From contig JANXSM010000054.1 in assembly GCA_025352665.1 (NCBI GenBank), positions 7,027-71,026 on the forward strand: a stretch of 64,000 bases of DNA, given 5' to 3'. Under the pieces are notes generated by a model. The model worked only from the letters and a program-made list of their open reading frames with translations, searched no databases and was not told where the DNA came from. The position numbers were made by a program, and so were the translations under genes. Source of the stretch: Rhodospirillales bacterium (GTDB lineage: Bacteria > Pseudomonadota > Alphaproteobacteria > Acetobacterales > Acetobacteraceae). Positions 2,717-19,455 of the stretch are shown piece after piece. Within the stretch, counting starts at the first letter, position 1. The number at the start of each line of letters is the position of its first letter.

Positions 2717-3631
2717 TCAGTTCGCTGGCAGGTTGGCCCCGTAGACCTGCAGCTGGCAATAGGCGGCGGTCACGAACGGTGCAGCCACACCTTCGCCCCG
2801 ACGCAGCAGGTCACCGAGAATATGATCCGCCTCGATCTTCGGCGCCTTGTTGTCCAGGTCACGCCGCATCGATGTGATGAACGGCGATTTCGGGTCGGTC
2901 AACATGGCCCGCGTCCTGGCGAAGGTAGCCGGCCGTGGGTCATGCCCGGCCTTGGCGCACAGCGCACGGCATTCCTCGGCCACGGCTGCGGCAATCTTCG
3001 GGCCGTCCCTGGTTGCCATGATCTGGGCGACATTGCCGCGCAGCAGGCAAGTGAGCGTGCCGCCGGCGGAAAGCAGCGACCATTTGTCCCACAGATCCTG
3101 CACGATCTCGGTGGAAACCTTCGCCGTGACGGGTGTTTTGGCGAACAGCGCCGCGAACGCAAGCAGGCTCGCCTGCGGTGCGCCGAAGCGGTTGCCGAAC
3201 AGCATCGTGTCGGCCGTGCCGAAATGGCGAATATGGCCGTTGGCCTCGAGCGTGATGGAAATCATGCAGACACCACCGAGTACATTCTCGGCCGCAAACC
3301 GGGCGTCGAGCGCATCGAAATGGGCGATGCCGTTGAGGATCGGCACGATCAGCGTGGCAGGCCCAACCGCAGGGGCGATGGCTGCGATGGCGGCGTCCAG
3401 GTCATACGCCTTGCAGGCCAGCAGGATCAGGTCGGCCTGCTCCGCCGGCGTTTCAACAACCTTGACGGGCATGCGGATCTCGCGGCCGCCGGTGTGCACC
3501 ACAAGCCCGTCCTCGGCCAACTGGCCGGCGCGACGCGGACGGACCAGAAAGGTCACGTCGGCGCCCGCCTCGATCAGATGCGCCCCGTAATATGCGCCGA
3601 TCGCACCGGCGCCGAGGATAAGGATGCGCAT
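2717..3631 (-). CDS. panE: 2-dehydropantoate 2-reductase family (ApbA/PanE) oxidoreductase
   Basis: 304 aa with an N-terminal Rossmann motif '[16 protein letters not shown]'. The ATG at 3631 overlaps the lepA stop by 1 nt (TGATG). Confidence 0.7.
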   Translation of the reverse strand: MRILILGAGAIGAYYGAHLIEAGADVTFLVRPRRAGQLAEDGLVVHTGGREIRMPVKVVETPAEQADLILLACKAYDLDAAIAAIAPAVGPATLIVPILNGIAHFDALDARFAAENVLGGVCMISITLEANGHIRHFGTADTMLFGNRFGAPQASLLAFAALFAKTPVTAKVSTEIVQDLWDKWSLLSAGGTLTCLLRGNVAQIMATRDGPKIAAAVAEECRALCAKAGHDPRPATFARTRAMLTDPKSPFITSMRRDLDNKAPKIEADHILGDLLRRGEGVAAPFVTAAYCQLQVYGANLPAN

Positions 3632-5436
3632 CAGCCGTCCATCTTGAGGGCTGCGAGGAACGCCGACTGCGGAATTTCCACCTTGCCGAACTGGCGCATG
3701 CGCTTCTTGCCCTCCTTTTGCTTATCGAGCAGTTTTCTTTTCCGGCTGATGTCACCGCCATAGCATTTCGCGGTGACGTCTTTCGAAAGGGCCCCGATCG
3801 TCTCACGCGCGATCACCCGCCCGCCGATCGCAGCCTGGATGGCGATCTTAAACAGCTGCTTGGGGATCAGATCCTTCAGCTTCTCGCAGATCGAACGGCC
3901 TCGCTTGTCGGCCTGGGAACGGTGGGCGATGAAGCTCAGCGCGTCCACCGGGTCCTGGTTCACCAGGATCGAGATACGCACCAGGTCGCCTTCCTCATAG
4001 CCGTCCATGGCGTAGTCGAAGCTGGCATAGCCGCGGCTGACCGACTTCAGCCGGTCGTAGAAGTCGAACACCACTTCATTGAGCGGCAGGCGATACACGG
4101 CCATGGCGCGGTTGCCGACATAGGTGAGGTCCACCTGCTGGCCACGGCGCTCGTTGCACAGCGTGAGGATGGAGCCGAGATAATCGTCCGGCACCATGAT
4201 GGTCGCCTTGATCCAGGGCTCCGAGATCGTCTTGATAAGCGTCGGGTCCGGCATGTCGGCCGGGTTGTGCAGCTCCTCCTCGGTGCCGTCGTTGCGTTCA
4301 AGCCTGTAGACCACGGAGGGCGCGGTCGCGATCAAATCGAGGTCGAACTCACGCGACAGGCGCTCCTGGATGATCTCCAGATGCAGCAGGCCGAGAAAGC
4401 CGCAGCGATAGCCGAAGCCCAACGCGGCCGAGGATTCGGCCTCGTAATGGAAACTCGCGTCGTTGAGGCGAAGCTTGCCGAGCGATTCCCGCAGCTTCTC
4501 GAAATCATCCGCATCGATCGGGAACAGGCCGCACCACACCACGGGGATCGACGGCTTGAACCCGGCCAGCGCCTCGGCGGCCGGTGCGCGATCATCCGTG
4601 ATGGTGTCGCCAACATTGCAATCGGCCACGGTCTTGATGGCAGCCGTGATGTAGCCCAACTCGCCCGGACCCAGATCGTCCACCGGCGTCATGCGCGGCG
4701 CGAACACGCCGACCTGCTCGATGTTATGCGTCGAGCCCTTGGACATCATGCGGATCTTCTGGCCGCGCTTCATCCGCCCGTCCTTGATACGGACCAGGAT
4801 GACCACGCCGAGATAGGCGTCGTACCAACTGTCGACCAGCAAAGCCTTGAGCGGCGCACTGGCATCGCCGATCGGCGGCGGCAGCCGGTGCACGATGGCT
4901 TCCAGCACGCCGTCGATGTTGATGCCGGATTTGGCCGAGATCATCACCGCCTCAGACGCATCGAGCCCGATCACGTCCTCGATCTGCTGCTTGACCCGGT
5001 CGGGCTCGGCGGCCGGCAAGTCGATCTTGTTGAGCACCGGCACGATCTCGTGGTTGGCGTCCATCGCCTGATACACGTTGGCCAAGGTCTGCGCTTCCAC
5101 GCCCTGGGAGGCATCGACCACCAGCAGGCTGCCTTCGCAGGCGGCCAGGCTGCGCGAAACCTCGTAGGCGAAGTCGACATGGCCCGGCGTGTCCATGAGG
5201 TTGAGCGTATAGACCTCGCCGTTGAGCGCCTTGTAGGTCAGGCGCACGGTCTGCGCCTTGATGGTGATGCCGCGCTCCTTTTCCAGTTCCATGCTGTCGA
5301 GCACCTGCTCCGTCATCTCACGAGCCGAGAGGGCGCCGGTGGTCTGGATCAGCCGGTCGGCCAGGGTGGATTTCCCGTGATCGATATGGGCGATGATGGA
5401 GAAGTTGCGGATGTGGCTGAGGTCGGTCTTCGTCAT
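3631..5436 (-). CDS. lepA: translation elongation factor 4 (LepA)
   Basis: '[21 protein letters not shown]', 'DTPGHVDF', 'NKIDL' and a full-length LepA C-terminal domain. Start chosen at MTKTD (5436) inside track ORF 3631..5448. Confidence 0.95.
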
Positions 5437-5472
5437 GCGCGCACACATAGGCGGAAACCGGGGATTTGTCAG

Positions 5473-5595: not shown

Positions 5596-7968
5596 TCAAG
5601 GCCATAGCGTCCCCAACACCTCGATCAACGCCTCCGCGTCGAACGGCCGCTGCAGCAGACGCCAAGGCGTGGCGCCGGCTTCGATCGCACGGGTGTCGCT
5701 CGAGGTCAGCACCACCGCAAGCTCCGGGCGCAGCCGCTGCGCCAGCGCCGCGAGCTGCACGCCGCTCAACGCACCAGGCAGTGTGAGATCGCTGAACAGC
5801 AGGTCGTAGTCGCGGCTGGAGCGCAGCTCCACCAGGGCTGCCTCTGTCGAGGCCACGCCGACCGTGTCGAAGCCGAGTTGGCGGAACAGCTGCAGCATCG
5901 CGGCCCTTGTGTCTGTGCGCGGCTCGACCACCAAGGCGCTGCGGCTCTGCGCATCGAACCGTTGGGCGGCTTCGCCGCGATTGCGGCCTTCAGCCCCTGC
6001 GCGAGGGAAATACAGGTCCACGATGGTGCCCTCGCCTGGCGTGCTGGAAATCGACATCGCGCCACGGCTCTGATGGACAAAACCGTAGACCATGCTGAGG
6101 CCAAGCCCGCTGCCGGTGCCGATCGCCTTGGTGGTGAAGAACGGCTCGAAGATCCGCGGCAGCACGGCAGGGTCGATGCCGCTACCGTTGTCGGCCACCC
6201 GAACCCGCACATGGGCGCCGATGGGAATGGTGTCGGGCAGCGCCTGCAGCGGGGCGGACAGGGTGAGCGGGTCGACCGCGATGACGATCTCACCGCGCTG
6301 GCCGTCCTGATCGCCCAACGCATCGCGGGCGTTGATCACCAGGTTCATCACCGCATTCTCGAACTGCCCGGCGTCGACCTCCACGACCAGCCTCCCCTGT
6401 GCCACCGCGTCGGGCGGAGGCGCCATGACAACGAGCGAGGCCTGCCCCCCCACCGCGCGCGCCAGCAGCGGCTGCAACGCCACCACCGCCGACTGCAACT
6501 CAACGTCGCGCGGGCTCAGCGACTGGCGACGGGCGTAGCTCAGCAGCTGGCCGGTGAGCTCGGCACTGCGGTGCGTGGCGTGCATCGCAGGCTCCAACAG
6601 CTCGCGCAGGCCGGCGGGCAAATCCTCCGAGTCGATCACCGTCTCCAAGTTCAGTCCGATGACGGTGAGCAGGTTGTTGAAGTCATGCGCGATACCGCCG
6701 GTGATCTGGCCGATCGTCTTGAGCTTCTCGGCCCGCAGTAACGCATCAGCGGCCAGCTTCTGCTCGGTGATGTCCTGGATCACCCCGGTGATGCCGATCA
6801 CCGTGCCCGCGGCGTCACGCCGCAGCCGCGACAGCTCTCGCAACGTGCGCACCTCGCCGGACGGACGCACGATACGGTACTCGAACTGCAGGTCCGGGCC
6901 ACCGCGGGTGGTACGCCGATACGATTCGCGGAACATGCGGCGGTCGTCAGGATGCACACAGGCGATCACCTGCTCGGATAAAATCGGCCCGACCCCGGGT
7001 TCCTGGCCCAGAATGCAATACAGCTCGGGCGACCAGACCAAACGGCGGGGCGAGAAATCGATAGTCCACAGACCCATGCCGGCCAGCCTCGCCGCGCCCT
7101 CCAGCTCGCTGGTGCGCGCGGTGAGACTCTCGGTGAGGCTGGCGAGCTCGGTGTTCGTGATCGCCAGCGCCGCCCGAGTCTGTTCAAACTCCGACACGTC
7201 CCATACCGTCACGAGGGCGGCCGGCCGTCTCTCGAAGTTGATGATTTGATAAGCGACATGAACCGGGAACGGCCGCCCGGTCGCATCCAAATGTACGGAG
7301 GTGATCATTTTGTGAACGCCTGGGTGCTCCGGCGCCTCGAAATAACTGAGGTGGCATGTCTCCGGCGGCAGCATCTCAGGCACCCGCCGCCTCAGGAACT
7401 CCTCGCGCGACCAACCGTATTTGGCGACTGCCGTCTCGTTTACCTGAAGGAAGGCCAAAGTTTCGAGATCGTACACCCACATCGGCATTGGGTTGCTCTC
7501 GAACATCAGACGAAACGACAGCACCTGCCGGCGTTGCTCCTCGCGCAGCGCATGCCGTTCGGTCACATCGGTCTGGATGGCGATGAAATGGGTCACCCGA
7601 TCGTCGTCGCGCACCGGCGTTATATCGAGCTCCACCATGAACGGCGTGCCGTCCCCGCGATAGTTCAGCAGCTCCACAGTGACCGCGCTGCCCGCCTCCA
7701 TCGCCTCGCGCAGCCGGGACCGGGCGTTTGCATCGGTGTCGCGGCCTTGCAGGAAGCGCGGCGCGCGCCCGAGCATCTCCGCGCGGGCGTAGCCAGCCAA
7801 GCGGCAGGCGGCATCGTTGGCGTACAAGATGCGCGGGCCCGGCTCGTCCAGCAAGGCATCGGTGATCAGAACACCGCTGCGCGTGGCCTGCAGAGCAAGG
7901 CGCAGCAGGTGGTGCTGCTCCTGTCCCTCCTCCGCGAGAAGGGTTGGGGAAGCTGGTTTGTCGCTCAT
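5596..7968 (-). CDS. hybrid sensor histidine kinase/response regulator with an N-terminal Cys-less LOV-like PAS, two further PAS domains, HisKA, HATPase and REC
   Basis: Track ORF 5596..8160; ATG at 7968 (MSDKPAS) chosen. LOV-like block '..LITD..ILYANDAACRLAGY..GRAPRFLQG..ELLNYRGDGTPF..FIAIQTDVTERH'. H-box 'IAHDFNNLL', G-boxes 'DNGSGI' and 'GTGSGLGLS', receiver 'LLFSDLTLPG'. Confidence 0.9.
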   Translation of the reverse strand: MSDKPASPTLLAEEGQEQHHLLRLALQATRSGVLITDALLDEPGPRILYANDAACRLAGYARAEMLGRAPRFLQGRDTDANARSRLREAMEAGSAVTVELLNYRGDGTPFMVELDITPVRDDDRVTHFIAIQTDVTERHALREEQRRQVLSFRLMFESNPMPMWVYDLETLAFLQVNETAVAKYGWSREEFLRRRVPEMLPPETCHLSYFEAPEHPGVHKMITSVHLDATGRPFPVHVAYQIINFERRPAALVTVWDVSEFEQTRAALAITNTELASLTESLTARTSELEGAARLAGMGLWTIDFSPRRLVWSPELYCILGQEPGVGPILSEQVIACVHPDDRRMFRESYRRTTRGGPDLQFEYRIVRPSGEVRTLRELSRLRRDAAGTVIGITGVIQDITEQKLAADALLRAEKLKTIGQITGGIAHDFNNLLTVIGLNLETVIDSEDLPAGLRELLEPAMHATHRSAELTGQLLSYARRQSLSPRDVELQSAVVALQPLLARAVGGQASLVVMAPPPDAVAQGRLVVEVDAGQFENAVMNLVINARDALGDQDGQRGEIVIAVDPLTLSAPLQALPDTIPIGAHVRVRVADNGSGIDPAVLPRIFEPFFTTKAIGTGSGLGLSMVYGFVHQSRGAMSISSTPGEGTIVDLYFPRAGAEGRNRGEAAQRFDAQSRSALVVEPRTDTRAAMLQLFRQLGFDTVGVASTEAALVELRSSRDYDLLFSDLTLPGALSGVQLAALAQRLRPELAVVLTSSDTRAIEAGATPWRLLQRPFDAEALIEVLGTLWP

Positions 7969-8269
7969 CCGCTCGCAGCACAGCCGGAAGTCACTTTTGC
8001 GACAGCAAGCCGCGGGCGGGGTCGATCTCGTGTCGCAGCCATGGCTCCGGAGTCCTTCGGCAAAACCGCGCACAGTGGGATCGATTGGCCCAGGCGACGC
8101 CTCATTTGCTGCGGCATCTGGCAAACACAACGGGCACAGCAGGCGATCCAGTATTAGCAATATTCGGTTGCATCATCAACACTTGAGCGAGCGTCGAAAT
8201 AATCATATTTTGTCATTTTACAGTAATTAATTGTTCGAATGTCCCTCCGCAACCCCGCCTGAGGCAGGC

Positions 8270-8980
8270 TCAGCTTTCGAACAGGCTCCGCAGGGCCACA
8301 ACGTCGCGCAGCACCAGGTGGCCATCCTGAGTCGCAACCAGCCCGCTCTCGCGCCACACGCGCAGCTGCTTATTCACGCTTTCCCGCGTGCTGGCCACCA
8401 GGGTCGACAGGTCGCGCTGCGACAGCTTGAGCGAGATGCGCATGCCGCCCGGTCCCTCGGCGCCATAATCCTCGGCAAGCTTGACCAGGCGCAGTGCCAA
8501 TCGGGCCGGCAGGCCCAACAGCGAGATCTCCTCCAGCGCCACCGAGGTTTTGCGCAGCCGGTCGCACAATACCACCAGTAGGCGTTCCACCAGCCCCTCG
8601 TGGCGCACCAGGAAGGGCAGGAACACCCGCCGCTCCAGCACCATCAACGTGGTCGCCTCCGCCGCCACCGCGTCGGCACTGCGGGGCTTGCCGTCGAGCA
8701 GGGAGAACTCGCCGAAAATTTCGCCTGGCCCCATCAGGTTCAGCGTTACCTCGCGCCCATCGAGCGTGGAGGAGCCAACGCGCACCTGCCCCATCAGCAC
8801 CACCATCATGCTGGTGCCGGCGTCGCCCTTGGAAAAGATGATGGCGCCGCGCGGCACCCGATGGTCGGTTGAAACGGCGATCAGCTCGTCGAGCTCATGA
8901 TGCAGCATGTTTTGGAAGAACGGGCTGGTGAGCAACGCATCACGCTTCATCAGGTCGAGCCGGCGTGGGGGACGTGTCAT
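8270..8980 (-). CDS. Crp/Fnr-family transcriptional regulator (cNMP-binding domain plus HTH)
   Basis: 'FGEFSLLDGKPRSADAVA' cNMP-binding signature and a C-terminal HTH '..SQRDLSTLVASTRESVNKQL'. The ATG at 8980 forms ATGA with the radical SAM stop (8977-8979). An alternative ATG lies at 8950. Confidence 0.85.
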   Translation of the reverse strand: MTRPPRRLDLMKRDALLTSPFFQNMLHHELDELIAVSTDHRVPRGAIIFSKGDAGTSMMVVLMGQVRVGSSTLDGREVTLNLMGPGEIFGEFSLLDGKPRSADAVAAEATTLMVLERRVFLPFLVRHEGLVERLLVVLCDRLRKTSVALEEISLLGLPARLALRLVKLAEDYGAEGPGGMRISLKLSQRDLSTLVASTRESVNKQLRVWRESGLVATQDGHLVLRDVVALRSLFES

Positions 8981-10968
8981 GCCGGCAGGGCGACCCTGTG
9001 ACCAGCCGCGGGGGCAGGCACCTGCTCCATGCCGAGGGTGTCGCTGAACGGGCGACCGTGACCCGCGCGGATGTCGCGCCACGCCGGCGCCCGGCGAAAC
9101 CCAGGCTGGCGCAGCGGCAGGGCCAGCAACTGGTCGCCCTCCGCCAGAATCAGACCGCGCCCGTCAAGCCAGGCCGCGGCTTCGCGCAGCGCTGGCTCGG
9201 CATAACGCGCGCTCGCGCCGGGATCGCTGGGGCGTTCACCTAGCTCGGCCAGCACATGGCGCCACGATACGGGCTGCCACGCCAGCGCGAGCAAGGCCGC
9301 GCAGGGGTTTCCGGCGGCGAGGTGAAGCACTTCGGCAGGCCAACCCCAGCGCTCGTCATGCACGACCAGCCCGTCAGCTTCCTGCTCAACCCACAGCGCA
9401 CTCTCGTCGTGATGGGCAGACCAGTTGGCACATTCCCCCGCGGCCTCGGCGGTATAGGCGTCGAGCTGGTCGAGTTCGGTGGAGTGCATGGTGAAATGAT
9501 AACCCAGCCGAGCGATCGCCGCAGCATCCCATGGATAGATGTGGCGATAGGCGGCCAGTGGCGTGAGCGTCACGCCGAAGCGCTCGGGTTCGTGGTAGTA
9601 CGGGCTGAACCGATCCGCGCGGGCACGCTGGAAGGTCGCCGGCGGCTGCAGATGGCGCAGGCGGGGGATCACCGCAGCCGTCGCCGCGTAGTTGGCCGCG
9701 GTCTCGCCGGGAAAGCCGGACAGCGCCAGCCATTCCACATAAACACCCGCCTCGGCGGCAAGCTTCAGGGCGGCCACGTTCTGCAGCCCCGTCACCCCCT
9801 TGCGCATCAGCTTCAACAGCCCGGTATCCAGCGCCTCGATCCCCGCCTGCACCTTGCGAATCCCCGCGCGCGACAGCGCGGACCAGTGCCAGGGTCGCAA
9901 ATTGGACTTGGTTTCGTAGAATACCAACAGATCGAGCCGGCTTGCCTCCAGCCGCGGAATGAAATCGTCGAAATAGCGCATCTCGAGGATGTTGTCGGCG
10001 TTGGCCACGTCGCGCGTGCCGTGGCGGCGTACCAGATAGGCCAACTCGTCGAAGGCACGCTTCTGGCTTTTGGCGCGATACGCCATGGTGACGCCATTCA
10101 GCCCGCAGAAGGTGCAGTGGTGCTTGGCCCCCCACCAGCATCCGCGCGAGGTCTCGAACACCACGGCGGGTGGATGCCGCAGGCCAAGGCCGAGCGCTGC
10201 GTGCTGATCAAAGAAGGCATCGAAATCCGGCACCGGCAGGCTGTCCATGTCCTGCACCGCGTCGGTCGAGGCGACCGGCACGATGGTCTCGAATGCCTCG
10301 CGCACGACCATGCCGGGAATGCCCAAAAGCGAGGCGCCGGAGATCAGCCGCCGCACCAGCTCGGGAAACGCGCGATCGCCCTCGCCCTGGCACACCGCGT
10401 CCAGAAACGGATACTTGCGGTGCAACTCAGCACCCATTTCGTCCTGGCAGTTGGCCCCACCCATCACGATGAACATGTCCGGATGGTCCTGGCGGATCCG
10501 CCGCGCCAGGGCGAGCGAGGCCATGGTCTGCTGAAACGAGGTGGTGAAACCGACCAGGCGGTAGCGGCTCCAGTCCACGCTCCGGTAACAGCGCTCTATA
10601 AAAGCTGCAGCCCCAGCGCGCACCGCCAGGAACGCCATCAGCCGGTGCGGATCGTGGAACTCGGGAAAATCGGCTGCGAACACCTCGGTCAGAAACGCCA
10701 TGCCCAGCGCCTCGGGCGCTTCATGCGCCACACCCGCAAAAGCCCATTCGCCGACCTGGGCCTTGTAATAGCGCACGTCCGTCAGCGCCGCGTTGGCGTC
10801 GTCACCGATCTCGGCCACGTGGTCGAGCGAGAAATAGCGCACTTCGCACGCAAGCCCCGCCGCCTCAACCGCAGGTTTCAGCAGCCCGAGCGCAAGATTT
10901 GGGTAGTACGCCAGTGAGAACGGCATCGAGACAAGCAGCGCGCCCGGCCCGACTGCCGCCCCGCTCAC
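8977..10968 (-). CDS. B12-binding-domain radical SAM enzyme, RiPP-maturation type (TIGR03975-like, from memory)
   Basis: N-terminal cobalamin-binding-like region '..FIVMGGANCQDEMG..CQGEGDRAFPELV'. Cluster motif 'ETSRGCWWGAKHHCTFCGLNG'. GTG at 10968 (or ATG at 10926) chosen so that the gene does not overlap the upstream peptide gene. Confidence 0.8.
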   Translation of the reverse strand: MSGAAVGPGALLVSMPFSLAYYPNLALGLLKPAVEAAGLACEVRYFSLDHVAEIGDDANAALTDVRYYKAQVGEWAFAGVAHEAPEALGMAFLTEVFAADFPEFHDPHRLMAFLAVRAGAAAFIERCYRSVDWSRYRLVGFTTSFQQTMASLALARRIRQDHPDMFIVMGGANCQDEMGAELHRKYPFLDAVCQGEGDRAFPELVRRLISGASLLGIPGMVVREAFETIVPVASTDAVQDMDSLPVPDFDAFFDQHAALGLGLRHPPAVVFETSRGCWWGAKHHCTFCGLNGVTMAYRAKSQKRAFDELAYLVRRHGTRDVANADNILEMRYFDDFIPRLEASRLDLLVFYETKSNLRPWHWSALSRAGIRKVQAGIEALDTGLLKLMRKGVTGLQNVAALKLAAEAGVYVEWLALSGFPGETAANYAATAAVIPRLRHLQPPATFQRARADRFSPYYHEPERFGVTLTPLAAYRHIYPWDAAAIARLGYHFTMHSTELDQLDAYTAEAAGECANWSAHHDESALWVEQEADGLVVHDERWGWPAEVLHLAAGNPCAALLALAWQPVSWRHVLAELGERPSDPGASARYAEPALREAAAWLDGRGLILAEGDQLLALPLRQPGFRRAPAWRDIRAGHGRPFSDTLGMEQVPAPAAGHRVALPA

Positions 10969-10999
10969 GCCGCTGCGGCCGGTCGGGCTGAGGCCTGGC

Positions 11000-11287
11000 T
11001 CAGCACTCCGCCATGCCAAGCGAAGGATCTGGATGCGCCGGCTTGAAGGCGGTCGCAGCGGCCTCGAAGTCGGCACCCTTGAGCGAGGTGAAGAACGCCA
11101 CCACCTCGTCGTGCGGCACGTAGTTCAGCTTCGCCAGCGTTGCGGCGACATCTTCGAACATCAACTTGCGCAGCTCAGGGTTCTTGATCAGCAGCGTCAG
11201 GATCGGCCCCATGTCCTTGAGGTTGATCTCCTGCGGCTTGCCGATCGGCGTACCGGGATAGGCGGGGTTGAAATGCGTATCAGACAT
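11000..11287 (-). CDS. putative RiPP precursor / NHLP-clan-like small protein (95 aa)
   Basis: ATG at 11287 is preceded by the strong SD AAGGGAGA. High GC3. The helical leader-like segment 'LLIKNPELRKLMFEDVAATLAKLNYVPHDEVVAFF' resembles nitrile-hydratase-like leader peptides. C-terminus is '..HPDPSLGMAEC'. Lies 31 nt upstream of the radical SAM gene. Confidence 0.55.
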   Translation of the reverse strand: MSDTHFNPAYPGTPIGKPQEINLKDMGPILTLLIKNPELRKLMFEDVAATLAKLNYVPHDEVVAFFTSLKGADFEAAATAFKPAHPDPSLGMAEC

Positions 11288-11410
11288 CGGGGTCTCCCTT
11301 TCTGTAGACAGGCCGGCGCATCGAGGCCCGACAAGACGTTTTGATCCGACACCAACGCTAGGCGGTTCGCGGCATCAGGTAAAACCCACAGGTGGTACAC
11401 AGAATTGTGT

Positions 11411-14400
11411 TCACGATATTGAAGCGCTGTCCAGCCGTACCCGCAATATCGCCAGCGCGGCTTGCTCCGGCGCCAGACCGAGCTCCCGCGCCAGCAGGTC
11501 GCAGGCACGCGCAAAATCGTGGGCCTGGCTGTGGCGCAAGCCGGTCGCGTGGGCTTCCGCCAGCAGGCGCAGCGCCAGCACCTCGGCCGGTCGATAGCCA
11601 TGATGGCGGGCCAATGACAGGCTCTCCTCCAGCTGTGCCAGCGCCATGTCCTCGGCCCCCGCAACCAGTTGGGCATGGCCCAGCGCCAGGCCGCACCAAA
11701 CGATGAGCAGCACCATGTTGGGGCCCCGCGCGGTTTCCATCGCCTCGTCGAGCAGCGCCAGCGCCTCCTGCGCACGGCCCACCAACGCATAGGCGCGGCC
11801 GAGATAACGCGCGACGGACGGCACCAGCAGACCGATCCCTCCGGCCCGACATGAGGCGAGTGCGGCCTCCAGCTGGTCCACCGCAGCGCCGCCGTCGCCA
11901 CGCTGCAGCTCGGCAAACCCCGAAGCCAGCCGCGCATAGGTGACGTCGTACGGCTTGATGGTTTCGTTGGCGATCGCCTGCGCCTCGGCCGCGAGTGCGA
12001 AGGCCGGCTCGAACGCCCCCGTCATCGCGTAGGTCTTGGACAGGCAGGACAGCAGCAGCACCGAGGCGGTACCGGTCGTGCCGGTGTTGTGTAGCCGCAT
12101 CGGGCCGCGCACCAGCGTCAGGCATTCCTCCATCGTCGCGGCCGCATCGGCGAAGTCGCCGCGCATCCAATGGGTCTGCCCCAGCGCATAGGCGGCACTC
12201 ACCTGCGCTGCCGGGTCGCCCAGCGTGCGCGCCGCGCGCTGCGCCCGCCTTCCAGCGTCCACCGCCCGATCGAGGCTGCCCTGGATGGACAGAAAGATGC
12301 AGCGGCTGATGTCGATCTGCGCCAGCCGCGCGAAATCGCCGAGCTGCTCGGCCATCTCGCTCGCCTCGTCGACGATCTGCAGCACGCGCGGGATCTGCGA
12401 GGTGGGGCCAAGCGCCACCCGCAGCCCGAGCCGGATGTCGATGCCCACGGCAATCGTCTTGCGCGTCTCGGGCACCTGGGCCAGAGCGTGCAACGCGCCA
12501 TCGAAGAAGCGGATCGCCTCCACCCAGGCGGAACGCGCATTGGCGCGATGGCCGGCGCGCTCCAGCAAGGCGGCCGCCCGGTCCCACACCTCGCCACGCT
12601 GGGCATGCTCGGCCAGCACCTCGGTCAGTTCGTCGGCGCGGTCAGCGGCCAGGTTCTCCATCACCGAAAGCACCCGCGCATGCAGCTCGCGCCGCTGCCG
12701 GCGCAACATGCCTTCGTAGGCGACAGTCTGCGTCAACGCATGCTTGAACGTGTAATCGGTGCCCGCCAGCCGGCTGATCTCATAAATGAACTCGGCGGCC
12801 TGCAGCGCCACCAGGTTGGTGGTCAGCAGCGCCTCCGTCAGGTCGGCCACACTGGCCAGGATGTCGCGCGGAATGTCGCGCCCGATCACGGCCGCCACCT
12901 GCAGCAGCCGGCGCGGCTCGCTGGTCAGCTGGTCGATACGATTGGCCAGGATGGCCTGCACGTTGGGCGGGATCTGCACCTCGGTCAGGTCGCGCGTCAG
13001 CCGCAGCCGCAGCCGCGGCATGGCCAGGGTGGGCTGCTCCACCACCACCACGCCCTGCTCGATCAGCGCCCGCGACAGCTCCTCGATGAACAGCGGCGTG
13101 CCGTCGGCCTGCGCCACGATGCGCGCGCGCAGCGCCGCCAGCTCCGGACCGCTGCCGAGCAGCTCCGTCAGCAGCGCCTCGGCAGCCGCCGGCGCCAACG
13201 GGCCAAGATGCATGGCCAGGCAATAGCTGCGATTGCCGCGGCTGGCCCAGGCCGGCCGCCGCTCCGGCCGCGTGGTCACCACGAGCAACACCCGGGCCCC
13301 GCCCAGCGCCTCCACCAGCGCTTCCAGCAGCAGTTCGCTCTGCGGGTCGGCCCAGTGCAGGTCCTCCACCACCAGCAGCATCGGGCGCACCGCACTGGCG
13401 CGCAGCATCACCAGCCGCAGCGCCGGCAGCATGCGCTCGCGCCGCACGTCGGCCGACAGGTTGGACCAGGCGGGATCGATCACCGGCAGATCCAGCAGGC
13501 TCTGCAGCGGCGCCGCCTCGGCCGGGTCCGAAAGCCCCAGCAGCAGCAGCGCCTGGCCCAGCTTGCGGGCCACGTCCGCGCGCCCGTCGCGCCGTTCCAC
13601 CCCAAGCCAAGCGCGCAGGATATCGGCAGCCAGTCGATACGGCGTGCCCTCGCCATGGCTGATCGCCGCCGCCCGGATCACGCTCCAGGCACCAGTGTTG
13701 GGCCGCATCAGGAACTCGTGCACCAGACGTGACTTGCCCACGCCGGCATCGGCGGTCAGCGTCACCACCTGGCCGCGGCCGAGCCCGACCCGCCCCAGCG
13801 TCGTCTCCAGCAGCCGCAGCTCCGAATCCCGGCCGACGAAGCCGGTCATCGCCTGACGCTGCGAACGCACGTCCCACGCCGGCCGCTCATACGCCGAAAT
13901 CAGCCGGAACACATCGACGGGCCCCGCGATCCCCGCCACCACCTGCGGGCCGAGATCCTCCAGATCCACCGTGCCATGCGCCAAAAGTGCTGTGCGCCCA
14001 GTCAGCCGCACCGTGCCGGGTACCGCACTGGTCTCCATCCGGTGCGCCAGATGCACGGTCACCCCCACCGCGTCATAGTCTGACGGATCCTGGCCCACCG
14101 AGCGGATCACCACATCGCCGGAATTCAGACCCACCCGCACCTCGAGCTCGGCATGCGGAGCTGCCACCCCCACCAGACGCGTCTCGGCGGCAACGGCTGC
14201 CACGATCGCCTGCGCCGCGAGACAGGCCCGGACCGCATGGTCCTCGGTCGCCACCGGGGCGCCGAACAGCGCCATGATGCCGTCGCCCTGCACCCGGTTG
14301 ACGGTGCCGCCGAACTTCTGCACCGCCAGCGCCATCGCATGCACCGCAGGATCGAGCAGGTTCATCGCCTGCTCGGGATCCAGCGCCTCGATCAGCGAGG

Positions 14401-14668
14401 TGGAGCCGCGGATATCGGCGAACAGCACCGTCACCACCTTGCGCTCGCCCTCGTCGATAAGGCGGAACATCGCGGCACTGGCGGCGGGCGGCGGCGGCAC
14501 CAGCTCGGGCGAAGCGGCGGAAAGGCCGGCGCCGCACTGGCTGCAGAACCGCGCCCCCGCCCTGGCCACAGCGCCACACCCGGCGCATGCCAGGGGGAAG
14601 GCTGTCCCACAGTGATCGCAGAAACGGCTCAGGTCGGGATTGTCCGCCTGGCAATGACGACACTGCAT
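11411..14668 (-). CDS. double zinc-ribbon / class III adenylate-guanylate cyclase / P-loop STAND ATPase / TPR multidomain protein
   Basis: 'CRHCQ..FCDHCG..CAGCG..FCSQCG'. Cyclase motifs 'VVTVLFADIRGST' and 'VQGDGIMALFGAP'. Walker A 'ADAGVGKS'. Long helical-repeat C-terminus. ATG at 14668 within track ORF 11411..14770. Confidence 0.85.
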   Translation of the reverse strand: MQCRHCQADNPDLSRFCDHCGTAFPLACAGCGAVARAGARFCSQCGAGLSAASPELVPPPPAASAAMFRLIDEGERKVVTVLFADIRGSTSLIEALDPEQAMNLLDPAVHAMALAVQKFGGTVNRVQGDGIMALFGAPVATEDHAVRACLAAQAIVAAVAAETRLVGVAAPHAELEVRVGLNSGDVVIRSVGQDPSDYDAVGVTVHLAHRMETSAVPGTVRLTGRTALLAHGTVDLEDLGPQVVAGIAGPVDVFRLISAYERPAWDVRSQRQAMTGFVGRDSELRLLETTLGRVGLGRGQVVTLTADAGVGKSRLVHEFLMRPNTGAWSVIRAAAISHGEGTPYRLAADILRAWLGVERRDGRADVARKLGQALLLLGLSDPAEAAPLQSLLDLPVIDPAWSNLSADVRRERMLPALRLVMLRASAVRPMLLVVEDLHWADPQSELLLEALVEALGGARVLLVVTTRPERRPAWASRGNRSYCLAMHLGPLAPAAAEALLTELLGSGPELAALRARIVAQADGTPLFIEELSRALIEQGVVVVEQPTLAMPRLRLRLTRDLTEVQIPPNVQAILANRIDQLTSEPRRLLQVAAVIGRDIPRDILASVADLTEALLTTNLVALQAAEFIYEISRLAGTDYTFKHALTQTVAYEGMLRRQRRELHARVLSVMENLAADRADELTEVLAEHAQRGEVWDRAAALLERAGHRANARSAWVEAIRFFDGALHALAQVPETRKTIAVGIDIRLGLRVALGPTSQIPRVLQIVDEASEMAEQLGDFARLAQIDISRCIFLSIQGSLDRAVDAGRRAQRAARTLGDPAAQVSAAYALGQTHWMRGDFADAAATMEECLTLVRGPMRLHNTGTTGTASVLLLSCLSKTYAMTGAFEPAFALAAEAQAIANETIKPYDVTYARLASGFAELQRGDGGAAVDQLEAALASCRAGGIGLLVPSVARYLGRAYALVGRAQEALALLDEAMETARGPNMVLLIVWCGLALGHAQLVAGAEDMALAQLEESLSLARHHGYRPAEVLALRLLAEAHATGLRHSQAHDFARACDLLARELGLAPEQAALAILRVRLDSASIS

Positions 14669-14760
14669 CACGGCTCCCCGAAACGATAATCTATGTTCAC
14701 TCTGCACAGACGATAGCCCAACCACACGGCCCCCCGCCACCTCCCGCGAGAACAACCGCC

Positions 14761-16419
14761 ATGCGCACATCGCGTCAGTCCAACCCGGACGCCTGGGGCA
14801 TCGATTGGCACCAGGCTGAAACCCTGTCCGCGTTCCAGGACCGTGTGCCGAACCTCGAACCGGCCGAGCGGCTGCTGATCCTGGACACGGCCGCCCAGGT
14901 GCTGGCCGATCACTATGCCCACCTGCCGCACAAGTCCCGCAGCCAGGGCACCGATCCCGTCGCCCGGCTGCAGGCCCTGCGCACCCAGGAAGCCGATGCC
15001 GACGCCAACCCCATGGGCGTGCCCCTCGGGACGCCCGATTTCCACGAGGCGGTGTGCCAGATCTTCGCCGAGCTGCACGATCTGCACACGCTGTACATCC
15101 TGCCGGATCCCTACGCCGGCATGGTCGCCTTCCTGCCGTTCCAGTTGGGATTGGCCACGGGCGAAGGTGACCCGACCCTCATCGTCACCCATGTGCTCCC
15201 AGGCTTCCACCACACCGGCTTCATCCCGGGGGCCACAGTGCTGAGCTGGAGCGGCATCAAGGTCGAGCGCACCATCCGTCGCCTCGCCTTGAGTTCTGGC
15301 GGCGCCAACAGAGCCGCGGCCAGCGCCCGCGCCCTGGCCTTACTCACCCAGCGCCCCATGCTGCGCATGCCGCCGCCGGACGCCGAATGGGTGGAACTGG
15401 AATACCTCTCGCCCGCCACCACCAAGCCCGCCCGGCTGCGCGTCGCCTGGCGCGTGGCGCCGCTGCCCCCGCCAGACCAGGCCGCACCGCCGCACGCCAG
15501 CGCCATCGATCCGGAAGGGGCGGCCCTGCAGCAGCATCGCAAGCAGAGCTACGCGCCCCATGTCCTGCGCGCCGAACGCGCCGGCGCCGTGCCGCAGCAC
15601 CCGGCGCCCGCCGCCACGCATCCATTTCACCACGAGATCGCGACCAGCTTTCCCAACGTGCGCGCGTGGATCGGCGAGGTCGACGCAAAACGCTTCGGCG
15701 TGCTGCGCCTGCGTAACTTCGTGGTCGACCAGGATCTGTTCATCGACGAAATGGGCCGCCTGCTCTCCCTCATGCCGCCAGACGGGCTGGTGATCGATCT
15801 GCGCGACAATCCCGGCGGCCTCGTTCCCGCGGCGGAGCGCCTGCTGGCGCTGCTGACCGACACGGTGCGCCCGGTGAAGGTCGCCTTCCTGGCAACCCAG
15901 GCCAATCTGGAGCTGTGCCAGCACCACGCGGCGGTCCACGCGGACAGCGAACTGATCCCCTGGATCGTCCCGCTGCAGGACGCGATCGCGAACCGGCGGC
16001 CCTGGTCCGAAGCCACCGAAATGACCCCGCCAGGCGACTGCGCCGGCCCACGGGTCTACACCGGCCCCGTCGTGCTGATCACCAGCGGCCGCACCTATTC
16101 CGCCGCCGACATCTTCACCGCCGGGTTTCGCGACCAGAACATCGGCCGGATCCTGGGCGTGGACGCCAACACAGGCGCCGGCGGCGCCAACATGTGGACG
16201 CACGCCAAGATCAACGAGATTGCCGGCACCGGTATCGCCCTGCCGCACAACGCCGAACTCCGCGTGGCCATCCGCCGCGTGCTGCGGAACAACGGACAGG
16301 TTCTGGAAGAGGCCGGCGTCCCGCCCGACCAGGTCCACGCGCTCACCCGCGCCGATCTGTTGGAAGGCGACTGCGACCTGCTTCGCACGGCCGCGGGACT
16401 GCTGCATCCTGGCCCGTAA
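14761..16419 (+). CDS. S41-family (C-terminal processing/tail-specific type) peptidase-like protein, no evident signal peptide
   Basis: 'LVIDLRDNPGG' and 'ITSGRTYSAADIFTAGF' (nucleophile Ser505 of the track ORF). ATG at 14761 within track ORF 14587..16419. Divergent from the cyclase gene. Confidence 0.75.
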   Translation: MRTSRQSNPDAWGIDWHQAETLSAFQDRVPNLEPAERLLILDTAAQVLADHYAHLPHKSRSQGTDPVARLQALRTQEADADANPMGVPLGTPDFHEAVCQIFAELHDLHTLYILPDPYAGMVAFLPFQLGLATGEGDPTLIVTHVLPGFHHTGFIPGATVLSWSGIKVERTIRRLALSSGGANRAAASARALALLTQRPMLRMPPPDAEWVELEYLSPATTKPARLRVAWRVAPLPPPDQAAPPHASAIDPEGAALQQHRKQSYAPHVLRAERAGAVPQHPAPAATHPFHHEIATSFPNVRAWIGEVDAKRFGVLRLRNFVVDQDLFIDEMGRLLSLMPPDGLVIDLRDNPGGLVPAAERLLALLTDTVRPVKVAFLATQANLELCQHHAAVHADSELIPWIVPLQDAIANRRPWSEATEMTPPGDCAGPRVYTGPVVLITSGRTYSAADIFTAGFRDQNIGRILGVDANTGAGGANMWTHAKINEIAGTGIALPHNAELRVAIRRVLRNNGQVLEEAGVPPDQVHALTRADLLEGDCDLLRTAAGLLHPGP

Positions 16420-17407: not shown

Positions 17408-17454
17408 GCCAAACCGTCGTTGACACATCCGTCATGTGTCAACGACGGTTTGGC
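17408..17454. terminator. perfect 20-bp stem / 7-nt loop hairpin overlapping the esterase stop codon
   Basis: GCCAAACCGTCGTTGACACA-TCCGTCA-TGTGTCAACGACGGTTTGGC. The stop codon of the minus-strand esterase (17439-17441) lies in the second arm. Confidence 0.5.
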
Positions 17455-18449
17455 ATGAGTCCCCAAAACTCCACGATTTCCTGCGCCGCGGAAATCGGCG
17501 TCGGTGCCACCGTCGAATGCGGCGTCAACGCCCCGGCCGCGGGATAGCCATGCCCCATGCCGTCCACCAACCATAGCTCGACGCAAGGCCGGCCCTGGTC
17601 GTCGCGCCAGACTGTGTGCTGCGCGCCGGCCCGCGGTTCCGCGACCGGTTTGAGGTCGCGCCCCGCAAGCGCCGTCCATTGCGCGACCAGTTCATGCGCA
17701 TTGCCGACCGCCACCACCTGGTCGGCCGTGCCATGCCACACCGACAGCTGCGGCAGCGGCCCGGCATAGCCCACAGGGCCCAGCGCACGCGCCCTGGCCG
17801 CCCACAGCGCGCCGGTCAGATCGCTGCCATGGCCTGCCATCCGCGTCATGGCGCCGACCACGCCCGAGGCGGCACCCGCAGGCAGCCCCGCCACGATCGC
17901 CCCGCCCGCGAAGCACTCCGGATAGGCCGACAGCAGGCACGCCGCCATCGCCCCCCCGGCGGACAGGCCGGTGACGAACACCCGCGACGGATCGCAGCGA
18001 TGCAGCGCGATCGCGCCCATCACCATGGCGTGGATCGAGGCGACCTCCCCGTGGTCGCGCATGATGTCCTTGGTCTGGTACCAGTTGAAGCAGCGATGGC
18101 GATTGTTGTCCTGCACCTGGCGCGGCATCAGCAGCACCATGCCGAGCCGATCCGCCAGCACCCGCCAGCCGCTCGCCTCCGCCAACGCCAGCGGCTCCTG
18201 TTCGCAGCCATGCAGCACCACAACCAAGGGTGCCCCGCGGCGCAGGCCGGGCGGCACATGCACGATCTGCTCGAGCTGGCCGGGATTGGCCGGCGCTGGC
18301 GCCACCCGCCCAGGTTTCGCCCGTCCCCGCGCAGGCCGCACCGGCTTGGGGTTCAGCATCTGCAGGATCCGCGGCCCGACCAGCATCGCGCTCAGCCGCA
18401 TGAGGCTGCGGCTGGAGCGCATCATCGAAGTCAGGGAGCGTGGCGCCAT
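17439..18449 (-). CDS. PHB-depolymerase-family esterase (LpqC-like alpha/beta hydrolase)
   Basis: 'PLVVVLHGCEQEP', nucleophile elbow 'GLSAGGAMA', '..SVWHGTADQVV..'. The start is ambiguous (18575, 18449, 18425 or 18422). Confidence 0.75.
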   Translation of the reverse strand: MAPRSLTSMMRSSRSLMRLSAMLVGPRILQMLNPKPVRPARGRAKPGRVAPAPANPGQLEQIVHVPPGLRRGAPLVVVLHGCEQEPLALAEASGWRVLADRLGMVLLMPRQVQDNNRHRCFNWYQTKDIMRDHGEVASIHAMVMGAIALHRCDPSRVFVTGLSAGGAMAACLLSAYPECFAGGAIVAGLPAGAASGVVGAMTRMAGHGSDLTGALWAARARALGPVGYAGPLPQLSVWHGTADQVVAVGNAHELVAQWTALAGRDLKPVAEPRAGAQHTVWRDDQGRPCVELWLVDGMGHGYPAAGALTPHSTVAPTPISAAQEIVEFWGLMPNRR

Positions 18450-18661
18450 AAAGCTGATCCTATTGTGCGGTGCAACATAAAGGACCTCAACGCGCCCGTG
18501 CTCCGATCCGCCGCAGCACTTGCGCGATGGCTGCCATGACGCTCGCCGTGCAACCAATTCGGACATGGCCACCACCGCCGGCGCAGCGCGCTTGCCAGAA
18601 CGGTTGCTTCAACGCAAAACCCCTGGGCTGCCGCAATCGCTGCGCCCGAGGAGAGAGCTGC

Positions 18662-19450
18662 ATGTCCGATGAGACCCCGCACGTGAACGGAACCGCGCCC
18701 CCGGCCGCCACCCCGGCGGCTGCGCCTGCAACGCCGCTGCCGCTGTTCTTCACCGGCGTGGTCGGCGTCAACCCGACCCAGCACAGCGGTCTCAGGCTCG
18801 ATCGCAGCAAGGGTTTCGGCTTCGCCGCCCACGCCCAATCGATCCCGCTCGGCCTCGGCGAGATGGAGATCGCCTGCCAGCACTACCCGATCGTGTTCAC
18901 CGTCGGCCCCGCCCCCACGCCAGTGGCGTTGATGGGCCTGAAGGAGACCACCAACCCCTTCGTCGCCTCCGACGGCACCTGGCGCAACGACAGTTATGTG
19001 CCGGCCTATGTCCGCGCCTTCCCGTTCATTTTCGTGGAAGACCAGGCCACCTCCACTCTTTACGTCGGCATGGACCCCGCGGCCGCGGCGATCTCGACCG
19101 AATCGGGCGCCGCCATGTTCGAGGACGGCAAGCCCAGCCCGGCCCTGTCGGAAGCGATCAACTTCTGCGCCGCCTTCCGCGACAATCTCAACGCCGGCAT
19201 CGCGTTCGCCAAGGCGCTGGATGACGCAGGCCTGCTGGAGGAGGAGGAGGCCACCATCAACTTCACCGCCGGCGGCGTCGCCCGCGTGCGCGGCTTCAAG
19301 ATCCTGAAAGCCGACCGGCTCGACAAGGTGAGCGACGAAACCTTCATCGAATGGCGCCGACGCGGCTGGATCGGCCCGCTCTACGCCCATCTGCACAGCA
19401 CCGGCCGCTGGGCGCGTCTGGTGGAAATGTCGGTCCCCCCGACCACCTGA
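18662..19450 (+). CDS. SapC-family protein
   Basis: ATG at 18662 within track ORF 18470..19450. '..PLFFTGVVGVNPTQHSGLRL..YPIVF..YVPAYVRAFPF' matches the SapC-family pattern. Confidence 0.7.
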   Translation: MSDETPHVNGTAPPAATPAAAPATPLPLFFTGVVGVNPTQHSGLRLDRSKGFGFAAHAQSIPLGLGEMEIACQHYPIVFTVGPAPTPVALMGLKETTNPFVASDGTWRNDSYVPAYVRAFPFIFVEDQATSTLYVGMDPAAAAISTESGAAMFEDGKPSPALSEAINFCAAFRDNLNAGIAFAKALDDAGLLEEEEATINFTAGGVARVRGFKILKADRLDKVSDETFIEWRRRGWIGPLYAHLHSTGRWARLVEMSVPPTT

Positions 19451-19455
19451 GCGGG

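Follow-up and report, generated by a model that had tools for sequence, protein, structure and literature searches.

We analyzed a 64,000-nucleotide stretch from a Rhodospirillales bacterium of the Acetobacteraceae (assembly GCA_025352665.1, contig JANXSM010000054.1, positions 7,027 to 71,026 of the forward strand), referred to here as the window. Between its positions 8270 and 16419 lies a cassette of five genes, which encode a small precursor-like peptide, a B12-type radical S-adenosylmethionine (SAM) enzyme, a protein that joins a class III nucleotide cyclase to a STAND NTPase and a TPR sensor (cyclase-STAND), an S41-family peptidase and a Crp-family regulator. The cassette looks like peptide modification wired to second-messenger signaling, not like an ordinary antibiotic cluster. 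Its genes and features are as follows.

14761-16419, plus strand: S41-family serine peptidase gene, CPAF-like, 552 aa, PF03572
14669-14760, 92 bp: divergent intergenic region between the S41 and cyclase-STAND genes, presumably a bidirectional promoter region
11411-14668, minus strand: cyclase-STAND gene, 1085 aa, with zinc ribbon, class III cyclase, AAA_16 and TPR domains
11397-11410, no strand assigned: perfect palindrome ACACA-N4-TGTGT, a candidate operator some 110 nt before the peptide ATG
11293-11300, minus strand: AAGGGAGA, the Shine-Dalgarno site of the peptide gene as seen in the DNA itself, with 5 nt between it and the ATG
11000-11287, minus strand: precursor-like peptide gene, putative NHLP clan, 95 aa
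8977-10968, minus strand: radical SAM gene, TIGR03975, cobalamin-type (predicted class B), 663 aa from a GTG start
8977-8980, minus strand: ATGA overlap of the radical SAM stop and the Crp start, which indicates translational coupling
8270-8980, minus strand: Crp/Fnr-family regulator gene, 236 aa, PF00027 and PF13545

A preliminary description of this DNA had noted the strong Shine-Dalgarno sequence, a radical SAM gene of about 660 aa that begins 31 nt after the peptide gene, the ATGA overlap, the 123 nt between the 3' end of the cyclase-STAND gene and the peptide ATG on the same strand, and the 92-bp divergent gap. The open reading frame (ORF) table and the sequence agree with all of these coordinates. 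The radical SAM ORF spans 8977-11076, with its stop TGA at 8977-8979. We placed its start at the GTG at 10968, 31 nt past the peptide stop, because a 79%-identical homologue aligns residue 1 to residue 1 with the GTG-started protein; automatic gene calls elsewhere use an ATG 42 nt downstream (649 aa). The 4-nt overlap with the Crp gene recurs in the gene calls of a locus with a 72%-identical radical SAM enzyme (L008), and a 1-nt overlap is found in another (L012). Co-translation had been proposed for the peptide, radical SAM and Crp genes together. The overlap supports it for the last two only; the peptide and radical SAM genes have 31 nt between them.

We collected loci around homologues of the radical SAM enzyme, with one genome per species (80 loci, radical SAM identity 72-33%), and searched their six-frame ORFs with a peptide hidden Markov model (HMM) and with the window proteins. 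Thirty-four species-level loci with a radical SAM identity of about 39% or more form the related set. Of the 33 related loci that include upstream DNA, 32 have a peptide homologue immediately upstream of the radical SAM gene, and a cyclase-STAND homologue adjoins this pair in 29 of 30. The two expectations of the preliminary description, synteny in related genomes and pairing of the radical SAM gene with a homologue of the 95-aa ORF, were thus borne out. The peptide, cyclase-STAND, S41 and Crp partners are all missing beside the 46 more distant TIGR03975 loci (L047-L092).

The cyclase-STAND gene is on the same strand as the pair in 19 loci (Acetobacteraceae, Rhodospirillales and other alphaproteobacterial metagenome-assembled genomes (MAGs), Belnapia and Neoroseomonas) and divergent in 10 (Ruegeria, Roseobacter, Roseicyclus, Hoeflea, Flavimaribacter and a Rhizobiaceae MAG). 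Divergently upstream of cyclase-STAND, S41 is encoded in 16 of the 19 same-strand loci, and all 10 divergent loci lack it; as described below, the former carry peptides with Glu-type tails and the latter peptides with Cys-type tails. A Crp gene follows the radical SAM gene in 5 of 17 same-strand loci. Loci whose radical SAM enzymes are 72%, 64% and 60% identical to that of the window have the same five-gene order, with the S41 gene diverging from a run of cyclase-STAND, peptide, radical SAM and Crp genes, and their flanks are unrelated. Because the gene order recurs in about 30 species-level genomes with unrelated flanks, the arrangement is far beyond chance. Judged by the locus counts across the related genomes, the conserved core is cyclase-STAND, peptide and radical SAM enzyme; S41 is clade-specific and Crp lineage-specific.

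The cassette is spread over about 30 alphaproteobacterial species, from soil Acetobacteraceae and Rhodospirillales to marine members of the Roseobacter group. Cultured carriers are Ruegeria arenilitoris, Ruegeria sp. B32, Belnapia mucosa, Neoroseomonas eburnea and Flavimaribacter sediminis. On a 389-kb plasmid of Ruegeria sp. B32 (NZ_CP081107.1; L093, 3625-8908), the three-gene core stands among amino-acid and TRAP-transport genes, and the NCBI Prokaryotic Genome Annotation Pipeline (PGAP) labels its products as a cyclase-domain protein, an Os1348 family NHLP clan protein and a RiPP maturation radical SAM C-methyltransferase, where RiPP stands for a peptide ribosomally synthesized and modified post-translationally. 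Three further loci depart from the usual layout. A group II intron reverse transcriptase (RVT_1 and GIIM) sits between the peptide and radical SAM genes at 8112-9443 of L012 (MAG GCA_963754235.1) and so separates two genes that are elsewhere closely packed. An apparent fusion of cyclase-STAND and peptide in L023 (6223-9962), where the cyclase-STAND frame continues into the beginning of the peptide homology, was set aside as a probable indel in a long-read MAG, because the remainder of that homology falls in another frame. Thiobacillus sp. UBA3361 (L032, 8559-13299) has a peptide homologue, an extra 330-aa radical SAM protein, a TIGR03975 enzyme and a C11 clostripain-family peptidase, with no cyclase-STAND, S41 or Crp gene within 10 kb; its peptide ends ...GGRAVVGLWI, not in Glu or Cys plus one residue. 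No radical SAM epimerase of the PoyD type accompanies the enzyme: the window cassette holds no second radical SAM gene, none is conserved across the loci, and only L032 has an extra one.

The radical SAM enzyme reaches 592.1 bits against TIGR03975 (RiPP maturation radical SAM C-methyltransferase; cutoff 281.85), with residues 47-655 aligned to model positions 2-606 of 606, and the family named in the preliminary description was therefore the right one. PF04055 is above its cutoff, and PF02310 is weak (26.7 bits against a cutoff of 32.1). The cluster motif CWWGAKHHCTFC at residues 277-288 (window 10105-10140) has the form CX7CX2C, all of 38 homologues keep its cysteines C277, C285 and C288, and the motif GCWWGAKHHCTFCG is also found. 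An AlphaFold2 model built with the 38 homologues (predicted local distance difference test (pLDDT) 91) has as its top Foldseek matches OxsB, TokK, TsrM, CysS and the methyl-coenzyme M reductase glutamine methylase MgmA, with E-values of 1e-15 to 1e-12. The model accords with a class B architecture, in which a cobalamin-binding domain precedes the radical SAM barrel, and gives the C-terminal domain (about 525-616, window 9121-9396) a beta3-alpha3 topology. The closest characterized relative in our data is the radical SAM enzyme of the Streptomyces clavuligerus clavusporin cluster (35.5% identity over 92% of the length). This identity and family membership suggest that the window enzyme may act on the peptide as a C-methyltransferase.

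The peptide was harder to place. The window peptide alone scores 18.1 bits (E = 0.0021) against NF038399, the Os1348 family NHLP clan protein model, and was not filed as a member because this is under the curated 40-bit threshold; a Pfam search with it returned zero matches. A word-indexed search with the 95-aa sequence found 3 proteins only. An exhaustive search by HMM, from a profile of 3 sequences, gave 12 true cluster representatives and, in addition, two highly repetitive proteins (P0133 and P0134, 511 and 530 aa) that we judged spurious, as they match via a repeated '...F.PVHPDP...' or 'SHQDPGQGF' motif. We recovered the family from six-frame ORFs adjoining radical SAM homologues, and an alignment of 36 members was gathered from the loci and the searches. 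Among these 36 relatives, NF038399 is matched by 30 (best E = 2.7e-14), PF14407 (Frankia_peptide) by 17, TIGR03793 by 14 and TIGR04509 by 8. The family profile also matches nitrile hydratase alpha (1e-7), the Os1348 crystal structure 6lk7 (5e-5) and the NHLP leader chimera 8tb1 (5.5e-4). The differences between the window ORF and a 66%-identical homologue number 27, 19 and 40 at codon positions 1, 2 and 3, the third having most.

An AlphaFold2 model of the peptide built from 15 sequences (pLDDT 83.5) has a helical bundle at residues 23-80 and a low-confidence tail from residue 81. It superposes best on 6lk7_C (template modeling (TM) score 0.75, root-mean-square deviation 2.1 Å) with Foldseek E-values that are not significant, so we regard the superposition on Os1348 as supportive and not as proof. 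Because the family HMM and profile matches and the helical model agree, clan-level membership, as a protein with a nitrile-hydratase-alpha-like helical domain, is supported. The proposed NHLP assignment thus stands for the family, while the window peptide on its own stays below the NF038399 cutoff. Within the clan, the window peptide matches the Os1348/Frankia_peptide branch rather than TIGR03793 itself, and the Ruegeria sp. B32 orthologue has been named accordingly by PGAP. Traits of TIGR03793 and the proteusins are absent from the peptide: there is no GG in its 95 aa, and its tail is short and conserved, not a long variable core.

The tail was not treated in the preliminary description and is the most informative feature. 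In the window peptide, the helical leader domain (about residues 23-80) is followed by a tail predicted to be disordered (81-95, window 11003-11047) that ends ...PAHPDPSLGMAEC. Across 68 unique peptides, the penultimate residue is Glu (40) or Cys (23) in 63, and the last residue is of 11 types. In the subgroup of the window (17 sequences, tail type ...PAHPDPxxGMAE-X), Met at position -4 and Glu at -2 are invariant and 8 different residues occupy the last position. Other subgroups end ...KRDSHGGSAAE-A, ...DALGTRAGE-N, ...GKGE-G or ...AGE-M, and the marine clade ends ...SSDGVIRPRC-X; the penultimate Cys belongs to the Rhodobacterales/Rhizobiaceae clade. The core-like tail is about 9-15 residues long, acidic and exposed at the C-terminus. 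Two homologues, from Belnapia mucosa (L026, about 9429-9911, ...EAEAEAEAEAEGEAEAEGEG) and from a MAG (L031, about 9583-9966, ...EAGEAEAEAEAEAEA), end in long acidic dipeptide repeats of the (EA)n or (EG)n type, which look as if the Ala/Gly-Glu unit of the other tails had been multiplied. A conserved tail with one free terminal residue is the reverse of the pattern of antibiotic RiPPs, a conserved leader with a hypervariable core.

This pattern bears on whether the locus is a conventional RiPP cluster, in which a C-methylated antibiotic or surfactant-like peptide would be released by S41 and exported by an unlinked transporter, with cyclase-STAND and Crp acting only as regulators. Both TIGR03975 and the NHLP clan were defined in RiPP contexts, and the clavusporin system, the characterized relative, yields a secreted methylated peptide. 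An Acetobacteraceae TIGR03975 cluster reported as highly expressed in cryoconite (PMC12350317), which may or may not belong to the present family, also counts in favor. The tail, however, is conserved instead of hypervariable, about 9-15 residues long and acidic, and it follows no Gly-Gly or other recognized leader-cleavage motif. The preliminary description had already stated that an exporter, a cyclodehydratase, a LanM-type enzyme and a Gly-Gly site are all lacking, and this holds within the window. Related loci add no further conserved family: in all-against-all clustering of their neighbors only the five families and shadow ORFs recur, so that about 30 neighborhoods share no gene for transport, immunity or further tailoring. 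Neither a signal peptide nor a transmembrane segment is predicted in any of the five cassette proteins. We therefore consider a conventional RiPP cluster unlikely. Because the tail is conserved, and exporter, immunity gene and signal peptide are all absent, a signaling or physiological peptide is the more likely product than an antibiotic.

The same tail would also suit a scaffold peptide from which a small molecule or cofactor is made, the penultimate Glu or Cys being converted by the radical SAM enzyme and then released by the peptidase, in a logic analogous to that of pyrroloquinoline quinone (PQQ), mycofactocin and the pearlins. Conserved cores are typical of cofactor precursors. The putatively modified position is invariant next to an unconstrained neighbor, the multi-copy (EA)n/(EG)n tails of L026 and L031 are as if several units were carried per peptide, and a dedicated peptidase is encoded where an exporter is absent. 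Yet known examples use SPASM-type radical SAM or other enzymes and not TIGR03975, the Cys-tail clade has no linked peptidase, and no downstream tailoring or utilization genes are conserved, which makes the scaffold route quite improbable.

The cyclase-STAND protein consists of a double zinc ribbon (residues 3-46), a class III cyclase (77-246, window 13931-14440), an AAA_16 NTPase with the Walker A motif GVGKS (277-463, window 13280-13840) and a MalT-like TPR sensor (about 728-1025). Pfam recognizes PF12773, PF00211 (78.7 bits), PF13191 (73 bits), PF13424 and PF17874; TPR_12 is above its cutoff and TPR_MalT, at 23.9 bits, below. This architecture is kept in the Ruegeria, Flavimaribacter and Belnapia orthologues. 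Residues 61-1069 match TIGR03903 with 258.4 bits (cutoff 705.75) from model position 270 onward, so the kinase part of that model is absent. The HMM matches agree with the identities given earlier to this protein, to the Crp regulator and to the S41 peptidase (PF12773, PF00211, PF13191 and TPR; PF00027 and PF13545; PF03572).

The best solved relatives of the cyclase domain are Cya2 (2w01) and CyaB (3r5g), and we assigned its residues via alignments to these, to 6fht (an engineered Cya2 fusion) and across the orthologues. The metal-binding Asp pair (FADI, GDG) is conserved in all orthologues. Canonical specificity pairs are Lys/Asp for adenylyl and Glu/Cys for guanylyl cyclases. At the purine-specificity position that is canonically Lys or Glu, the window and most loci have Arg, and seven orthologues (L017, L020, L022, L024, L025, L029 and L034) have Glu. 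The second specificity position is Asp in the window and Asp or Ala/Thr across the orthologues. His replaces the transition-state Asn in the window (His or Tyr in most orthologues), and the transition-state Arg is kept. With Arg at the Lys/Glu position and His in place of Asn, the cAMP or cGMP of the preliminary description is an unproven product. The domain is plausibly active, with a product that cannot be read from sequence, and different subclades may make different nucleotides.

A cyclase under STAND control, with a cyclic nucleoside monophosphate (cNMP)-binding partner, is also what an anti-phage system of the Pycsar or Avs type would have, the STAND sensor driving the cyclase and a cNMP-binding effector. 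PADLOC PycC models do match the cyclase domain (best E = 4.7e-16), and PycTIR models match the cNMP-binding domain of Crp (E = 1.6e-7). These matches are at the level of domains only; a TIR, transmembrane or nuclease effector is missing, and the protein that binds cNMP carries instead the helix-turn-helix output of Crp. The closely linked partners are a RiPP-type radical SAM enzyme and an NHLP-clan peptide, and the loci stand among metabolic genes, not in defense islands. We rejected the defense reading as highly improbable.

The main rival to the explanation that we favor below makes the NHLP-clan protein, or its modified and trimmed tail, the putative ligand of the STAND TPR sensor. Binding would trigger NTP-dependent oligomerization and cNMP synthesis, with the linked Crp or a regulator from elsewhere in the genome sensing the nucleotide, and the radical SAM enzyme, which needs an iron-sulfur cluster, SAM and cobalamin and is oxygen-sensitive, would make such a peptide-gated relay report the metabolic state. 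The near-obligate linkage favors it: cyclase-STAND is as tightly kept as a core component (29 of 30 loci, in two clades and two orientations), and, compared with it, Crp and S41 are dispensable. The tail, in a wholly cytoplasmic system, is a conserved acidic stretch at an exposed C-terminus; proteins or peptides are common ligands of STAND sensors, and acidic C-terminal tails are common ligands of TPR domains. On the other hand, pathway-specific STAND-type regulators (MalT/LAL-like) are also conserved in ordinary biosynthetic clusters, and Thiobacillus (L032) has the peptide and the radical SAM enzyme without a STAND protein. A relay of this kind is, in our estimate, a minority possibility.

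The S41 protein scores 71.1 bits against PF03572 (cutoff 24), its match to NF033424 (CPAF, 64 bits) is below cutoff and so is that to the Prc model. The YSAAD serine motif is visible, a hydrophobic N-terminus is absent from the sequence, the orthologues carry PDZ_4 matches, and a search of PDB sequences gave no relative at E <= 1e-3. In the related loci S41 occurs only with Glu-type tails, and we regard it as a candidate tail-processing protease. The Crp protein matches PF00027 (82.9 bits) and PF13545 (51.4 bits) and shows the GE...RSA phosphate-binding signature; its subfamily and ligand are undefined because no NCBIfam equivalog model reaches cutoff. A homologue in L002 is 82% identical.

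The palindrome at 11397-11410 sits directly after the cyclase-STAND stop codon and overlaps a weak -10-like hexamer. In the window and the two lineages closest to it (L001 and L008), its arms are conserved and its spacer varies, and L014 has CACAA-N3-TTGTG at its place. Each locus has a single copy of the motif, no other copy turns up in 1.5 Mb of loci or in the window, and every lineage with the palindrome also carries the Crp gene. The 92-bp divergent region holds no consensus sigma-70 match, and sigma-70 and terminator scans gave about the same yield as shuffled sequence. A second-messenger writer and reader had been described as bracketing the peptide and its enzyme. Of the two, the cyclase-STAND protein is the conserved partner, in 29 of 30 loci, and the Crp reader is an accessory of some lineages, present in 5 of 17 loci of the same clade.

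We explain the whole best as a module that matures a peptide in the cytoplasm and is coupled to a nucleotide second messenger. This explanation is put forward tentatively, with slightly less than an even chance of being right. In this scheme, the radical SAM enzyme would dock the peptide leader, possibly via its C-terminal beta3-alpha3 domain, and would C-methylate one or a few unactivated tail carbons with methylcobalamin and the 5'-deoxyadenosyl radical, at or beside the invariant penultimate Glu (Cys in the Rhodobacterales/Rhizobiaceae clade). S41, where present, could recognize the free C-terminus and clip the tail or its last, unconstrained residue. The STAND protein would be an ATP-driven switch in which the TPR sensor sets the cyclase output, and Crp, where present, would read the nucleotide and control the operon, perhaps at the ACACA-N4-TGTGT palindrome. 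The identities of the proteins, the radical SAM fold, the synteny, the tail conservation and the lack of export signals come directly from the data; the reaction, the cleavage, the nucleotide and the direction of signaling we infer.

Several observations weigh against the maturation module. The chemistry is predicted from family membership, and class B radical SAM enzymes also perform non-methylation reactions. That the C-terminal domain of the enzyme might be a RiPP recognition element (RRE) is an idea taken from its predicted topology only; a Pfam search at E <= 10 was empty, and an 11-homologue profile searched against the PDB gave insignificant winged-helix-like matches only. The cyclase is without the canonical Lys and Asn, and in the Rhodobacterales clade the Arg is frequently missing too, so it may make an unusual nucleotide or have weak activity. 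A regulatory loop is not a general feature, because Crp is absent from most related loci, and a simple pathway regulator is not usually as near-obligate as the STAND protein is, which fits a peptide that acts as its ligand. Taken to its full extent, the cassette would be a self-contained intracellular signaling device and no pathway to a natural product, a device in which a tail written by the radical SAM enzyme and edited by S41 is read by the TPR domain of the STAND cyclase and a cNMP signal passes to Crp; we think this improbable, if not negligibly so.

The flanks of the window cassette look like housekeeping and metabolic genes. A hybrid histidine kinase (PAS-PAS-HisKA-HATPase-receiver; 5596-8160, minus strand) lies 110 nt downstream of the Crp gene on the same strand. 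Other neighbors are listed here, the first judged by eye from its translation.

3631-5448, minus strand: LepA/EF4-like ORF
17439-18575, minus strand: PHB-depolymerase-type esterase
18470-19450, plus strand: SapC-family protein
19351-20853, plus strand: FAD-binding oxidoreductase

The kinase, the esterase, the SapC protein and the oxidoreductase are not conserved with the cassette in other genomes. Scans of the 64-kb window found no tRNA and no Rfam family at gathering score, and control by a riboswitch or other RNA was rejected on these grounds.

The preliminary description did not recognize the combination as a described RiPP class, and our literature search found no publication on the cassette. 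Its parts are individually named by the NCBI pipeline in cultured Ruegeria, so the novelty is in the system and not in the families: a near-obligate cyclase-STAND partner, S41 and Crp as accessories, and a tail with penultimate Glu or Cys are together undescribed in the literature searched. If our explanation holds, three to five genes make up a compact system that ties B12 radical SAM peptide chemistry to a STAND cyclic-nucleotide switch. Its putative substrate is small and defined, with a tail of about 10 residues and one invariant Glu or Cys, and would be a tractable model for TIGR03975 enzymes. A RiPP-like precursor with its 'core' under purifying selection points to a physiological or signaling role. 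Should the device reading be true, a modified protein tail would be the input to a bacterial second-messenger switch, and the same logic is suggested for TOMM kinase/cyclase fusions. The cassette is also a testable model for cyclase-STAND proteins beside RiPP genes, including the uncharacterized TIGR03903, and the existence of cultured carriers makes experiments feasible.

Among known systems, the proteusins (polytheonamide, with PoyB and PoyC) combine an NHLP leader with B12 radical SAM C-methyltransferases. By their descriptions, the window shares with them the NHLP-type leader and a cobalamin radical SAM 'RiPP maturation C-methyltransferase'; it differs in having no radical SAM epimerase, tailoring gene, long hypervariable core, Gly-Gly site or C39/ABC exporter. 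Mycofactocin and PQQ offer a likeness of logic only, with a conserved C-terminal core, a radical SAM enzyme and a dedicated peptidase in a cytoplasmic pathway that has no exporter, and their radical SAM enzymes are of a different class (SPASM) from that of the window. The cyclase-STAND protein resembles cyclase-ATPase-TPR proteins of the Rv0386 type. Its cyclase, AAA_16 and TPR parts align over about 1000 residues with TIGR03903, the 'TOMM system kinase/cyclase fusion', which is named for a RiPP (TOMM) context and for which our literature search found no characterizing paper. In the window, a double zinc ribbon takes the place of the N-terminal kinase, and a radical SAM enzyme that of the cyclodehydratase. 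A structural relative from the same clan as the window peptide family is Os1348 of Pseudomonas sp. Os17 (6lk7; PMC7726476). The OS3 cluster has a GNAT protein, an MA-type peptidase and a SagB-type dehydrogenase beside efflux genes and is controlled by GacA (PMC7726476); unlike the window, it has no radical SAM, cyclase, S41 or Crp gene.

The clavusporin cluster mpc of S. clavuligerus (MpcA, MpcB, MpcC, MpcP and MpcT), whose locus in our data shows the published layout of major facilitator superfamily (MFS), hydrolase, radical SAM and DUF5825 genes, is like the window in that its radical SAM enzyme is annotated in TIGR03975. Both clusters pair a B12 radical SAM enzyme with a short peptide of ribosomal origin and have a serine peptidase gene of their own; in the window, the action of these enzymes on the peptide is putative. 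MpcB and MpcC together C-methylate unactivated carbons of a 13-mer (PMC10849626). The clavusporin precursor, however, has 39 aa and no NHLP-clan leader, the enzyme needs the DUF5825 partner MpcC, the peptidase is of family S9 and not S41, there is an MFS exporter, and neither cyclase-STAND nor Crp is present; the product is a hydrophobic secreted surfactant, in contrast to the acidic conserved tail of the window.

The aminopyruvatide system differs from the cassette in its genes. Its cluster includes MNIO, P450 and methyltransferase genes, the precursor does not resemble NHLP proteins, and ApyD is only weakly related in sequence to the window radical SAM enzyme, which scores 69 bits against NF050148 (cutoff 750). 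ApyD is a B12 radical SAM enzyme, RRE-containing according to its authors, that methylates C-beta of the penultimate residue within a conserved C-terminal motif (PMC10635010). Its target is the very position that is invariant in the tails of the window family, and it thus provides a precedent for a B12 radical SAM enzyme that acts on a penultimate residue.

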